Source: a virus (taxonomy: Duplodnaviria; Heunggongvirae; Uroviricota; Caudoviricetes). From it: a DNA stretch of 4,142 nucleotides. The notes beneath the pieces are model-generated. The model saw only the letters and a program-made list of their open reading frames with translations. It searched no databases and was not told the origin of the DNA. The stretch is from the IMG/VR virus record IMGVR_UViG_2711768040_000003; one strand, 5' to 3'. Shown here one piece after another: positions 1-3,236 of this stretch. Made by a program: the position numbers and the translations under genes. Within the stretch, counting starts at the first letter, position 1. Every line of letters starts with the position of its first letter.

Positions 1-292
1 CTGAGCTATGACTGCGCATTCGGGCCACCAGCAGAGGTGGCATTGCTTTTTCGATAGCTGGTAACAACGCCTGAATTTTTTTAACCGCATCAGGGGTGTC
101 TTTCTCCACCCAGCGGAAAATTTTCTGAGTATTGCGAGCCAGGGCTTCCGGATGGCTGTCGTCATACAGTTCCGGGAACGTCATTCCCAGCTCGAAATAC
201 GCTTTGGTAATTTTCGCAGCCGGTACTTTTTCGCCGTCCGGATGCGCCCAGGCATTCATCGCCATGCGGATGTGTTCATGCTTGATTTTCAT
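1..292 (-). CDS. ydaT: YdaT-like prophage protein (CII-position gene), N-terminal ~97 codons only; the C-terminus runs off the left edge
   Basis: Reverse-complement of 241-292 reads ATG AAA ATC AAG CAT GAA CAC = MKIKHEH..., which I recall as the YdaT N-terminus. No stop before position 1, so it is absent from the ORF track. It lies directly downstream of the YdaS-like gene on the same strand, as in Rac. Family assignment is from recall, not a search. Confidence 0.6.
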   Translation of the reverse strand, partial: MKIKHEHIRMAMNAWAHPDGEKVPAAKITKAYFELGMTFPELYDDSHPEALARNTQKIFRWVEKDTPDAVKKIQALLPAIEKAMPPLLVARMRSHSS

Positions 293-557
293 GAATCAAG
301 CTCCTAGAAAGTGGTTTTGTTAACGTTTTGGTATCTTCCAGCTCGGGCCAAATATTCATCCAATCAAAAGGCCTTAGTTGCTGACGTGTAACTTCACCAT
401 TACTGGCTCGCTCAATAAGGACACATAACGATGCCCCTAACACTTGACCTTTACTCAACGCCTTTCTTAGATAACCGATGCTGGTACCACACTCGCATGC
501 AAACATACGCTGTTCATCTGACGAAAGAGAATTGAGAAATATTCTTAATTCTTCCAT
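276..557 (-). CDS. ydaS: YdaS-like Cro/CI-type HTH regulator (Cro position of the switch)
   Basis: 93-aa ORF in the track. Motif ...GTSIGYLRKAL...IERASNGEVTRQQLRPFDWMNIWPEL matches my recollection of the YdaS/Cro-like family pattern. Strong SD: reverse-complement of 558-570 is CTAAGGAGTAGCT immediately before the ATG (minus strand, 557-555). Divergent from the repressor gene. Confidence 0.7.
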   Translation of the reverse strand: MEELRIFLNSLSSDEQRMFACECGTSIGYLRKALSKGQVLGASLCVLIERASNGEVTRQQLRPFDWMNIWPELEDTKTLTKPLSRSLIHENQA

Positions 558-582: not shown

Positions 583-664
583 AGAATACCTACAGGTAAA
601 CAAAAGTCAATACCCACAGGTTGTTTACCTTGCAGTAATCGCATCTATTATTTACCTATGGACA
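583..664. promoter_or_regulatory. OR-like divergent operator/promoter region: three 12-bp sites TACCTACAGGTA (587-598), TACCCACAGGTT (611-622), TACCTATGGACA (653-664)
   Basis: Seen directly: repeated imperfect palindromes with consensus TACCyAyrGGTA, centres 24 bp apart for the first two. Candidate leftward promoter on the minus strand, TTGACT (complement of 605-610), 16-bp spacer, TATTCT (complement of 583-588), overlapping the sites. Candidate rightward -10 TATTAT (646-651) lies 6 nt before the repressor ATG. Confidence 0.55.
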
Positions 665-1077
665 AATATGAATTTAGACGACAGCAACTCATCAAAATTC
701 GTGATGAGAAATGCGATGGTAAAGCGGTTAACGTGGCCAGAAAGATCGGGCGCGAGCCTTCTTATGTATCAAGAATGTTGTACCCAGAGGGGAAAAAGGG
801 AAAAAAACGGATCGCTGATGATATGGTGGAGATTATCGAAGAGTCCTTTGGGTTACCCCGGGGATGGATGGATGGTATCGTTTCATCATCAACGAACACA
901 GCCTCCAGTTATGAAACAAGGGTTCTAACGCCACGACAACGTATTTTTTTAGATCTCTTAGACGAACTGCCAGAAAGTGAAGCGGATAACTTATTAAAAA
1001 CTCTTGAAGAGAAAAAACAGTATTACAATATGATCTACGAAGAAATCCGTAAAAAGAAAGCACAAAACGCATCATAG
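658..1077 (+). CDS. Prophage immunity repressor, XRE-family HTH, DicA/RacR-like
   Basis: 139-aa ORF. N-terminal HTH-like segment AVNVARKIGREPSYVSRML. C-terminal LTPRQRIFLDLLDELPESEADNLLKTLEEK resembles my recollection of the DicA C-terminus (...LELLELFNALPESEQDTQL...). Divergent from the Cro-like gene and flanked on both sides by the same operator motif. No SD upstream of the ATG. Confidence 0.75.
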   Translation: MDKYEFRRQQLIKIRDEKCDGKAVNVARKIGREPSYVSRMLYPEGKKGKKRIADDMVEIIEESFGLPRGWMDGIVSSSTNTASSYETRVLTPRQRIFLDLLDELPESEADNLLKTLEEKKQYYNMIYEEIRKKKAQNAS

Positions 1078-1657: not shown

Positions 1658-1876
1658 ATGCAGAAACGAGAACCCGTCATCATCGCGCCAGACTATACCG
1701 ATGATGAACTTTATGAGTGGATGCGCCAGAAAATTAATGCAGCGCAGGATCTGAAATGGGCCAATGAAGCCAGGGCTAAGCAGGCTGAAAATCTGTCCGC
1801 TCTGGAGCAGGATATCACCAGGCTGGAAAAAGCAGCGGCATTAAGCATTGCCAGAATGATTACATACCCGCGTTAA
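1658..1876 (+). CDS. ydfC: YdfC-like prophage protein, 72 aa
   Basis: 72-aa ORF in the track, MQKREPVIIAPDYTDDELYEWMRQKINAAQDLKWANEARAK...; length and position match Qin ydfC. GAGGAA at 1646-1651 sits about 7 nt upstream of the ATG. Confidence 0.75.
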   Translation: MQKREPVIIAPDYTDDELYEWMRQKINAAQDLKWANEARAKQAENLSALEQDITRLEKAAALSIARMITYPR

Positions 1877-1898
1877 TAGCTAACCAACGAGGCTAATA

Positions 1899-2219
1899 AT
1901 GGAATTTAAAGATTTACCAATGCAATTCCAGGAAATGGCAGCGAATATAGTTCGTTCCCAACTGGCGACTCTTGACCTGAGTACCGTAGAAAAAGAAACC
2001 ATCGATACTATATCCGGTAACGTGCGTCGTGCCTTTATCGGTCTGTACGAAGAGAAGCAGCTCTCTGATAACCAGGATTTACATGAAAAATACCTCCTGG
2101 ATCTAATGGATATCATTGATAAGGGGTTTGGCTTGTTAATGAAAAAGAAAGGGATTCGAATAGAACTCCTTGAAAATTACTTTGCAACAAAAAGCATTAA
2201 TTCTTTTGATTCAAAATAA
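1899..2219 (+). CDS. Hypothetical acidic protein, 106 aa, no recognised family; first gene of the AT-rich inserted segment
   Basis: 106-aa ORF in the track with a good SD (GAGG at 1889-1892, 6 nt before the ATG). Co-directional with the operon, starting 23 nt after the ydfC stop. AT-rich relative to flanking DNA. I recognise no motif. Confidence 0.6.
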   Translation: MEFKDLPMQFQEMAANIVRSQLATLDLSTVEKETIDTISGNVRRAFIGLYEEKQLSDNQDLHEKYLLDLMDIIDKGFGLLMKKKGIRIELLENYFATKSINSFDSK

Positions 2220-2472
2220 GAGAATTAATTACAGACTTAACATGCTCTTTCTCATGATTGAAGCTCTCATGATTGAAAGTGCCGGGTTGAAGCGAGTCGA
2301 TATAATCAACAAGACTCTGTCGTACGACTTCATTTTTATCCATAACAGATGCAAGAAATGAAATTGCTAAAAGAGTTATATCACTACGCGCCGCAGCATG
2401 CTGCAATGCTTTATCAAAATTATTAATCTGGCGTATCAGGGAGTTAATGATTTCATCATTTTCAGTCGACAT
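2197..2472 (-). CDS. Hypothetical 91-aa protein, convergent with and overlapping the 3' end of the 106-aa ORF by 23 bp
   Basis: ATG-initiated portion of the 202-aa minus-strand track ORF: MSTENDEIINSLIRQINNFDKALQHAAARSDITLLAISFLASVMDKNEVVRQSLVDYIDSLQPGTFNHESFNHEKEHVKSVINSLILNQKN. Plausible helical composition and an AAGGG SD-like sequence upstream. The track's extension to 2805 starts at TTG and is arginine-rich across the GC-rich region, so I trimmed it. Confidence 0.4.
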   Translation of the reverse strand: MSTENDEIINSLIRQINNFDKALQHAAARSDITLLAISFLASVMDKNEVVRQSLVDYIDSLQPGTFNHESFNHEKEHVKSVINSLILNQKN

Positions 2473-2806
2473 TTCACCCTTCTGAGGGTTGGTGATTAAG
2501 GAGTTCTCCACGGGTGAGGTGGAGTGCGTGCGCCGGACACGGGTGAGCATCCGGCACTGACAGTTTACTGAAAGGATATTTCCCTGAAAAGTCAGACCAT
2601 AACGCGAAAGCGCACGGCGAGGTAGCTGGTTCATAGATAGCCTGTCGTTAAATTTTCGTCGACCGTGCACTTCCGGTTGTGGCAACCCGCGAAATGGCGC
2701 GGCGGTAAGTATGGCGGGGTTATTCCTTCCCCGTTGAGGACACCGGGTTGTCAGGTTGACCATACGCTTAAGTGACAACCCCGCTGCAACGCCATCTGTT
2801 ATCAAT

Positions 2807-2864
2807 TTTCTGGTGACTTTTGGCGGTATCAGTTTTACTCCGTGACTGCTCTGCCGCCCTTTTT
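2807..2864 (+). ncRNA. dicF: DicF small regulatory RNA (cell-division inhibitor sRNA), including its 3' stem-loop and U-tract
   Basis: tttctggtgacttttggcggtatcagttttactccgtgactgctctgccgccc followed by ttttt matches my recollection of E. coli DicF (UUUCUGGUGACGUUUGGCGGUAUCAGUUUUACUCCGUGACUGCUCUGCCGCCC) with about one mismatch. It sits between ydfC and dicB as in Qin. Confidence 0.85.
2822..2864 (+). terminator. Intrinsic-terminator-like 3' end of DicF (GC-rich stem GGCGG...CCGCC followed by TTTTT)
   Basis: GGCGG (2822-2826) and CCGCC (2854-2858) flank an internally structured loop, followed by the T-run 2860-2864. DicF 3' ends are known to arise partly by termination. Confidence 0.5.
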
Positions 2865-2868
2865 AAAG

Positions 2869-3030
2869 TGAATTTTGTGATGCGGTGAATGCGGCTGAGC
2901 GCACGCGGAACAGTTAAAAAGGCCAGTTGACTTCCGTATTGGTTCTTATGGGTGGGTTCTCTGTATCCGGCGTTAATTGTTAACTGGTTAACGTCACCTG
3001 GAGGCACCAGGCACCGCATCACAAAATTCA
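2869..3030 (+). repeat. Perfect 19-bp inverted repeat (TGAATTTTGTGATGCGGTG at 2869-2887; CACCGCATCACAAAATTCA at 3012-3030) enclosing 124 bp between DicF and dicB
   Basis: Exact reverse-complement arms read from the sequence. In RNA this gives a 19-bp duplex starting 5 nt after the DicF U-tract and ending 17 nt before the dicB ATG. Confidence 0.7.
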
Positions 3031-3047
3031 TTGTTGAGGACGCGATA

Positions 3048-3236
3048 ATGGAAACGTTATTACCAAACGTTAATACGTCTGAAGGTTGCTTTGAAATTGG
3101 TGTCAAAATCAGTAACCCTGTATTTACTGAAGATGCCATTAACAAAAGAAAACACGAACGGGAGTTATTAAATAAAGTATGCATTGTTTCAATGCTGGCC
3201 CGTTTACGTCTGATGCAAAAAGGATACTGGCAATGA
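3048..3236 (+). CDS. dicB: DicB cell-division inhibitor, 62 aa
   Basis: METLLPNVNTSEGCFEIGVKISNPVFTEDAINKRKHERELLNKVCIVSMLARLRLMQKGYWQ is near-identical to my recollection of K-12 DicB. In frame with track ORF 2952..3236. Confidence 0.9.
   Translation: METLLPNVNTSEGCFEIGVKISNPVFTEDAINKRKHERELLNKVCIVSMLARLRLMQKGYWQ

Follow-up and report, generated by a model that had tools for sequence, protein, structure and literature searches.

A probable hypervariable accessory-gene slot with two independent modules between ydfC and DicF in Qin/Rac-like prophages

The dicBF operon of the Qin prophage, in its Escherichia coli K-12 form, has nothing between ydfC and the DicF precursor region. How, then, did two small open reading frames (ORFs) come to lie at this position in IMG/VR record IMGVR_UViG_2711768040_000003, and do they belong together? 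The 4,142-nt stretch of this record that we analyzed, here called the window, comes from a Qin/Rac-like lambdoid prophage, of which it represents the immunity and early-left region. One of the two frames, ORF106 (106 aa), runs on the plus strand from an ATG at 1899 to a stop at 2219, with GAGG 8 nt upstream, and the other, ORF91 (91 aa), runs on the minus strand from an ATG at 2472 to a stop at 2197. Both are found precisely where the original prediction had placed them, and the 3′ ends of their coding sequences overlap by 23 bp (2197-2219). That prediction saw in the pair a single inserted two-gene cassette. Our results make it probable that the region is instead a hypervariable, moron-type accessory-gene slot in the early-left dicBF-type operon of Qin/Rac-like prophages, that this slot holds two independent modules, with ORF91 gated by its leader, and that K-12 carries a decayed form.

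The 72-aa ORF that RefSeq loci annotate as ydfC (1658-1876, plus strand) forms the left flank of the slot. From its end to DicF is 931 nt in the window and 341 nt in K-12-type Qin, so that the earlier figure of about 930 nt holds whereas the K-12 value of about 260 nt given with it was too low. BLAST comparison with a K-12-type locus (L004) shows that the difference is an indel of exactly 1897-2486, or 590 bp, whose flanks abut in that locus (1896 joined to 2487), and thereby bears out the presence/absence polymorphism anticipated at 1880-2480. The empty junction was detected in 2695 of 5426 complete E. coli genomes (MG1655 is 100% identical), ORF91 DNA in 198 and the whole arrangement of the window in 138. 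The AT-rich character of the block is equally clear, with a GC fraction of 0.376 against 0.484 to its left and 0.540 to its right, and a GC fraction at third codon positions of 0.32-0.39 against 0.52-0.58 for ydfABC. Presence, absence or replacement among otherwise collinear prophages, together with a base composition unlike that of the flanking phage genes, is the signature of a moron or accessory-gene slot.

At least five alternative contents occupy this slot across related prophages, as expected if the position in the early-left operon is variable. In O157:H7, a 135-aa plus-strand gene faces a 77-aa minus-strand gene, again with an overlap of 23 bp; another type combines 126 aa and 73 aa with an overlap of 11 bp (L011), and further types carry a lone plus gene of 124 aa or 119 aa and no minus ORF. 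By eye, the minus ORFs of 91, 77 and 73 aa share no similarity with one another, and short convergent overlaps of 0-44 bp recur with unrelated cargo genes. The homology breakpoints differ among prophages, which speaks against the insertion of a single two-ORF cassette: the O157 locus is common with the window over 1658-2011 and then from 2473 onward, and the 124-aa types are common with it up to 2215 and again from 2509 onward. As far as can be judged from these comparisons, the block is a mosaic of separately exchanged modules.

The plus genes of the slot all start with MEFKDLP and have about 53 N-terminal residues in common, after which they diverge. ORF106 matches phrog_6937, a family of unknown function, over its full length (residues 1-106 against profile positions 1-106 of 124, E 4.4e-67) and can be counted as a member, although it ends short of the last 18 positions of the profile. 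Its N-terminus alone also matches phrog_1363, phrog_2151 and phrog_9419, a pattern that fits a conserved N-terminus joined to divergent C-termini. Scans of Pfam, PADLOC and NCBIfam gave no match, leaving phrog_6937 as the only hit among the libraries. There are 235 homologues in Escherichia and Salmonella, and the ratio of nonsynonymous to synonymous substitutions (dN/dS) is 0.25 in comparison with locus L005. The product is acidic, hydrophilic and soluble, has no transmembrane segment, and is modeled by AlphaFold2 (AF2) as a helical bundle with a predicted local distance difference test (pLDDT) score of 69. ORF106 is thus an ordinary early-left gene whose N-terminal domain, some 53 aa long, is conserved and whose C-terminus is a mosaic. 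It would close the ydfABC block and be transcribed rightward together with DicF and dicB, and recombination at the slot would have reshuffled its C-terminus.

ORF91 is much rarer. Among 5.8 billion sequences only 15 close clusters were found, and 50,697 phage records held no match. Two allele classes exist in E. coli, at ≥98.6% and 84.5% nucleotide identity, and both are open, of equal length and free of indels; dN/dS is 0.30, the lowest among the six frames. Some alleles are disrupted. A HMMER scan of 1.84 billion representatives yielded a single true distant relative (92 aa, 36% identity, BLASTP 7e-11) along with two repetitive false positives, and a profile search combined with our locus catalogue added members from Salmonella enterica and S. 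bongori as well as a third E. coli subfamily (MDKKQ...). The resulting superfamily comprises four subfamilies of 91-92 aa with 26-36% identity and 14 invariant positions, including R29, D31 and E74-K75-x-H77. Profile searches of Pfam, PHROG, PADLOC, NCBIfam and the PDB revealed no relatives, and the sole PADLOC match was to BrxA at 12.7 bits (E 0.014). The original prediction recognized neither protein, and the profile comparison it proposed has placed ORF106 in a family of unknown function and found nothing in the PDB, so that no characterized family can be assigned to either. The ORF91 protein has a grand average of hydropathy of -0.31, an isoelectric point of 5.4, a maximum 19-residue Kyte-Doolittle hydropathy of 1.43 and no transmembrane segment; its AF2 model consists of four helices (pLDDT 69). 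A tandem 15-nt duplication within the gene (2250-2277, minus strand) is seen as a perfect 13-nt direct repeat at 15-nt spacing that encodes FNHES/FNHEK, and because some database alleles are single-copy for it, repeat number is polymorphic. On the evidence of sequence comparison, ORF91 is a real but rare protein gene, a module separate from ORF106, and the founding member of an uncharacterized superfamily in lambdoid and P2-like prophages.

The P2-like members reveal how far the module extends. Relatives of ORF91 occur in a Salmonella prophage and in a contig from a sequencing run, both with P2-like immunity (integrase, helix-turn-helix (HTH) repressor and Cox). There, the gene facing the ORF91 relative encodes an HTH protein of 214 aa, and the two converge and overlap by 41 bp. 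DNA homology of 71-80% links these loci to 2469-2788 of the window, that is, to the leader of ORF91 and the GC-rich region beyond it, but within the ORF itself DNA similarity between ORF91 and relatives at 26-36% protein identity is gone. The C-termini of ORF106 and the 214-aa protein are weakly similar (hhalign E 3.9e-4, probability 35%; BLASTP not significant), which fits co-transfer of flanking DNA with the cargo. In locus L016 the leader is present twice, before a 156-aa gene and before the ORF91 relative. The genes that precede the ORF91 relatives on the same strand are unrelated to each other, encoding a 175-aa coiled-coil and zinc-ribbon protein in L014 (7184-7711) and the 156-aa protein in L016 (168-638).

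The leader itself consists of the 84 nt upstream of the ORF91 start codon (2473-2556, minus strand) and is predicted to fold into three hairpins. Hairpin 1 spans 2555-2532 and hairpin 2 spans 2524-2506, and in hairpin 3 an anti-Shine-Dalgarno (anti-SD) sequence, CUCCU at 2503-2499, pairs with the Shine-Dalgarno (SD) region at 2483-2479. With RNAfold, hairpin 1 forms in every unique leader, and hairpin 2 and a paired SD form in nearly all; hairpin 2 occurs in three unrelated sequence versions, and in hairpin 3 the partner of the SD is CUCC(U/A) in almost every variant. An alternative hairpin 3, ACCCU/AGGGU, was rejected since it pairs in 89% of cases compared with 97% for the anti-SD version. 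When 15 distinct leaders are aligned, the paired fraction is 98.7% of cells, compared with 33-52% in slid controls, and three pairs change on both sides. Moreover, the invariant U8.G19 wobble and the common G9.U18, U10.G17 and U38.G46 wobbles would be mismatches on the opposite strand. It is accordingly the minus-strand RNA, and hence the mRNA of ORF91, that carries the structure. The spacing from SD to ATG is conserved among leaders.

The ORF91 frame is open for 202 codons (2197-2805, minus strand), through the leader and the DicF precursor, and N-terminally extended forms of 117-202 aa are found in databases. We rejected such an extension for ORF91: its start would be an upstream ATG that has no SD and falls within the hairpin 1 loop, that the second version of the leader does not have, and that is not in frame with the 77-aa cargo. 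An apparent conservation of 'MLTRVRRT' results from nucleotide conservation of hairpin 1. Public ORF91 records of 117-145 aa are N-terminal over-extensions.

What lies behind the leader is exchangeable. A pattern scan, together with loci already in the catalogue, gave 139 leader copies, 72 of which lack SD and ORF (the K-12 and 124-aa types). In the other 67, an ORF of 57-94 aa follows at a fixed distance, and these ORFs fall into approximately 10 unrelated families. The ORF91 superfamily accounts for 23 copies, and the remainder include ORFs of 64 aa (phrog_4987), 77 aa (phrog_10348), 73/74 aa (phrog_7249) and 69 aa (phrog_4274), a zinc-ribbon-like protein of 61/80 aa (phrog_10133), a 94-aa GhoS-like protein (Pfam, 21.2 bits at a cutoff of 21) and a 57-aa ORF. 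A second kind of leader precedes a 66-aa ORF and an 83-aa BssS-family protein (6.5e-17). PADLOC found no match among these other cargo ORFs. One leader in front of about 10 unrelated small ORFs suggests a reusable dock for small cargo proteins. A more speculative extension, which we hold only tentatively, is that leader and exchangeable ORF form a portable 'cargo dock' common to lambdoid and P2-like prophages, which would express interchangeable small effectors antisense to the early operon. Convergent early transcription might act as the switch for its output, as might RNase processing of a sense/antisense duplex next to the DicF precursor, and the ORF91 superfamily could then be a new class of prophage effector serving, for example, superinfection exclusion, anti-defense or control of host physiology.

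Because hairpin 3 pairs the anti-SD with the SD, the primary transcript of ORF91 should be translationally gated. A weak promoter just upstream of hairpin 1 would drive the gene, and translation would begin only when hairpin 3 opens. A candidate -10 hexamer is TAAACT (2562-2567, minus strand), which lies 5 nt upstream of hairpin 1 and is conserved at 2567-2562 in most of 33 unique leaders, with TATTAT similarly placed in a P2-like copy. The two frames converge, as the original prediction emphasized, and overlapping transcripts are possible. A bidirectional terminator at the overlap was considered and discarded, given that the AT-rich hairpin at 2196-2229 does not stand out from shuffled sequence (z -0.89). 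With no terminator found, the minus-strand transcript probably runs antisense into ORF106. ORF91 might thus be made while the early-left operon is silent, i.e. in the lysogen, and its expression would run opposite to the induction of the toxic DicF/DicB operon as a result of convergent transcription. The product would be a small, soluble four-helix protein, an effector or regulator, that binds a host or phage partner.

Several observations weigh against this model and against the reading of the slot on which it builds. No minus-strand promoter upstream of 2472 reached the consensus threshold of the scan, and the candidate TTTTCA-17-TAAACT, which matches 8 of 12 positions, falls below it. A convincing terminator for ORF91 is likewise missing. 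In the window, the SD of ORF91 (2477-2482, minus strand) reads GAAGGG where other copies read GGAGGG; the change makes for a weaker SD and for weaker pairing to the anti-SD, forms one of only four unpaired cells in the covariation alignment, and means that this copy of ORF91 may be poorly translated. The covariation in the leader derives mostly from a few divergent P2-like sequences. The polarity of the K-12 difference, deletion as opposed to insertion, rests on parsimony, and we infer, rather than observe, both expression in the lysogen and convergent interference.

The question of polarity turns on what the empty site retains. The original prediction supposed an insertion, and a recent arrival of mobile DNA at an ancestrally empty K-12-like site could be argued from the sharp GC drop in the block (0.376 versus 0.48 and 0.54) and from the fact that the empty site is by far the commonest state (2695 genomes). 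Its frequency, however, is inflated by the vertical inheritance of Qin, and the hallmarks of a transposable element or miniature inverted-repeat transposable element are absent: no direct or inverted repeats flank 1897 and 2486, so that neither a target-site duplication nor terminal inverted repeats are evident, and the window contains no transposase or recombinase ORF. Moreover, hairpins 1 and 2 and the anti-SD are still there in K-12-type sequences, which are cut between 2486 and 2487, within the hairpin 3 loop, and lack the SD and the ORF, whereas elsewhere the leader always ends in an SD and an ORF. The 124-aa type is a second decayed form, cut inside hairpin 2 between 2508 and 2509. An insertion is thus unlikely, and the direction originally proposed is probably reversed. 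With a truncated leader still in place, K-12 looks like a deletion derivative. Most simply, the forms with cargo would be the ancestral ones, and the widespread K-12 state would reflect a deletion that became fixed in a cryptic prophage passed on by vertical descent. In K-12 Qin, such a deletion of 590 bp would have taken out ORF106 and ORF91 together with that half of the leader which holds the SD.

The relationship between the two genes admits other interpretations, none of which we favor. ORF106 and ORF91 could form one cognate system, for instance a pair of the toxin-antitoxin or abortive-infection kind, with mutual regulation by its convergent transcripts. The 23-bp convergent overlap, the recurrence of this architecture in further pairs of ORFs (O157, 23 bp; L011, 11 bp) and the weak resemblance of the ORF106 C-terminus to the 214-aa protein facing P2-like ORF91 relatives (hhalign probability 35%) all lend it some appeal. 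Nevertheless, when the family of the minus ORF is tabulated against the C-terminus of the plus gene, the ORF106-type C-terminus faces ORF91, a 73-aa ORF or nothing (L003 and L005 lack a minus ORF), and the ORF91 subfamilies face at least three different plus-gene C-termini, so the predicted two-ORF unit does not survive comparison. This independent recombination does not support a cognate pair. Type II toxin-antitoxin genes are adjacent, co-transcribed and inherited together, but ORF106 and ORF91 are convergent, are not co-transcribed and are each found without the other; nor do they show homology to a known toxin or antitoxin fold, or any match to toxins, antitoxins or defense proteins in PADLOC, Pfam or NCBIfam. 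We therefore regard a cognate pair as improbable. Less probable still is a type I module in the style of hok/sok or ralR/ralA, in which an inert structured mRNA encodes a harmful ORF91 protein held in check by the antisense early-left transcript. ralR/ralA also lies in the early-left region of a prophage, the ORF91 SD is sequestered by hairpin 3 of a conserved 5′ structure as in a type I toxin mRNA, and the 3′ end of ORF91 overlaps the opposite transcript. However, ORF91 is an acidic, hydrophilic protein of 91 aa without a transmembrane segment, not a small hydrophobic or membrane toxin, and the cargoes behind the leader are heterogeneous, including BssS-like and GhoS-like proteins. Rfam gives just two matches across the window, to DicF and, below threshold, to STnc100, and shows no dedicated antisense small RNA (sRNA) gene or antitoxin in the slot; the 3′ end of ORF91 would have an antisense partner in the early-left mRNA, though this is no dedicated sRNA. 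A hok-like fold-back through the 10-nt complementarity between 2498-2507 and 2162-2171 was dismissed as chance because it is private to the window allele. Finally, it is most improbable that ORF91 is no protein gene at all, with an antisense RNA or the DNA sequence alone being conserved. Its very narrow distribution (15 close clusters among 5.8 billion, none in 50,697 phage records), its disrupted alleles and the weakened SD in the window would be in keeping with such a view, but the frame stays open over 16% nucleotide divergence without indels and with the lowest dN/dS, full-length protein relatives persist at 26-36% identity where DNA similarity in the ORF is gone, and the SD-to-ATG spacing is conserved.

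An accessory-gene slot with separately exchanged modules, the reading that we prefer, invites comparison with known systems. Lambdoid morons and lysogenic-conversion genes (lambda rexAB, sieB and HK97-type genes) are likewise optional genes in a syntenic operon, with deviant composition, variable among relatives and plausibly expressed from the prophage. The original prediction suggested cargo of this kind, but the slot proteins resemble neither rexA, rexB nor sieB in sequence or profile, nor any PADLOC model, so that neither superinfection exclusion or abortive infection of a described type nor a known defense system can be recognized. Also unlike these morons, the cargo of the slot is a single small soluble protein encoded antisense to the operon, lying behind a conserved SD-sequestering leader and apparently not between a promoter and terminator of its own. 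The anti-phage hot spots of P2 and P4 (Rousset et al. 2022, PMC9122126) similarly swap unrelated cargo at a fixed position in a temperate phage, and ORF91 relatives actually occur in P2-like (Cox-type) prophages. However, their loci adjoin cox and the early operon and not the published P2 or P4 loci, and the slot cargoes are single proteins of 57-94 aa with no known defense domain. What sets the slot apart from those hot spots is the single small cargo, antisense to the early operon, behind an SD-sequestering leader shared by lambdoid and P2-like prophages. The mRNAs of hok, tisB and ralR also have a structured 5′ leader in which the SD pairs with an upstream anti-SD, as well as overlap with the opposite strand, but the ORF91 product is neither small and hydrophobic nor known to be toxic, its leader serves many unrelated ORFs, and no cognate antisense sRNA was found.

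The literature contains, as far as our searches went, no description of ORF106, ORF91 or the leader. A nearly identical locus (98.8%) lies in an apparently complete prophage adjoining yccA in E. coli QA-1986 630, where the RefSeq entries for the two ORFs, WP_000394534.1 and WP_000102678.1, are hypothetical proteins; literature searches on both accessions returned no match. A published comparative figure draws non-conserved genes merely in white, without description (PMC5069750).

The remainder of the window conforms to the dicBF operon of Qin, with ydfA (1343-1498), ydfB (1500-1628), ydfC, DicF, dicB (3048-3236, plus strand; Pfam DicB 7e-39) and a ydfD-like gene all present, followed by the start of an exonuclease gene. 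Work on this operon and the DicF precursor is reportedly due to Faubladier in 1990. To the left lie a cro-like gene (276-557, minus strand) and a repressor-like gene of 139 aa (658-1077, plus strand). The product of the latter has no Pfam match at E ≤ 1, in contrast to K-12 DicA, which is a DNA-binding regulator according to its RefSeq annotation; an identical protein holds the same position in locus L054. The early-left operon yields DicF and DicB from one promoter upstream of ydfA, and its transcript is processed by RNase III as well as RNase E (PMC10448788; PMC5069750), with a 190-nt DicF species made by RNase III (PMC10448788). The GC-rich right flank of the slot is this known 190-nt precursor and is not new: the long form of DicF, approximately 190 nt, spans 2671-2860 (plus strand), outside the cassette, and the 53-nt DicF lies at 2808-2859 (plus strand; Rfam RF00039, 75.8 bits against a gathering threshold of 48).

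Some features of the DicF side extend to other phages. A strongly conserved core within the long form (2687-2783, plus strand), which has no Rfam family, recurs in phages P1 and P7, where it lies about 40 nt downstream of C1-controlled Pban promoters; the P1 copy overlaps what is annotated there as a 'dicF-like region'. More than 120 IMG/VR contigs carry the core, as do P2-like prophages without DicF (L014, 7745-7899). Two mutually exclusive helices in the core compete for AACCCCGC, each with a compensated variant (L051 for the far arm; L085, L088 and L006 for the local arm). In Serratia symbiotica (L021), the core is followed by a frameshifted relative of the 175-aa gene of L014. The STnc100 match (2857-3080, plus strand; 36.3 bits against a gathering threshold of 47, E 1.8e-5) spans the DicF-dicB spacer. 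The Salmonella Cox-type prophage of L014 carries a C4 antisense RNA (6338-6425, 74.1 bits) and a sub-threshold isrK match (6536-6602) adjoined by a Derepression-family gene, which together suggest a hybrid immunity region in the style of P2, P4 and P1.

Operons of the dicBF type are present in most E. coli genomes, where they carry toxic genes and modulators of phage resistance. Our comparisons mark the stretch between ydfC and DicF in these operons as a recombination hot spot for small genes of unknown function, and they correct the view taken from the reference strain, in that the K-12 arrangement is most likely a decayed form. The leader defines approximately 10 small proteins of prophages, among them the ORF91 superfamily, which neither Pfam nor the PHROGs contain. 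If these cargoes are exclusion, anti-defense or host-control factors, then the leader would provide a simple sequence handle for finding more of them.

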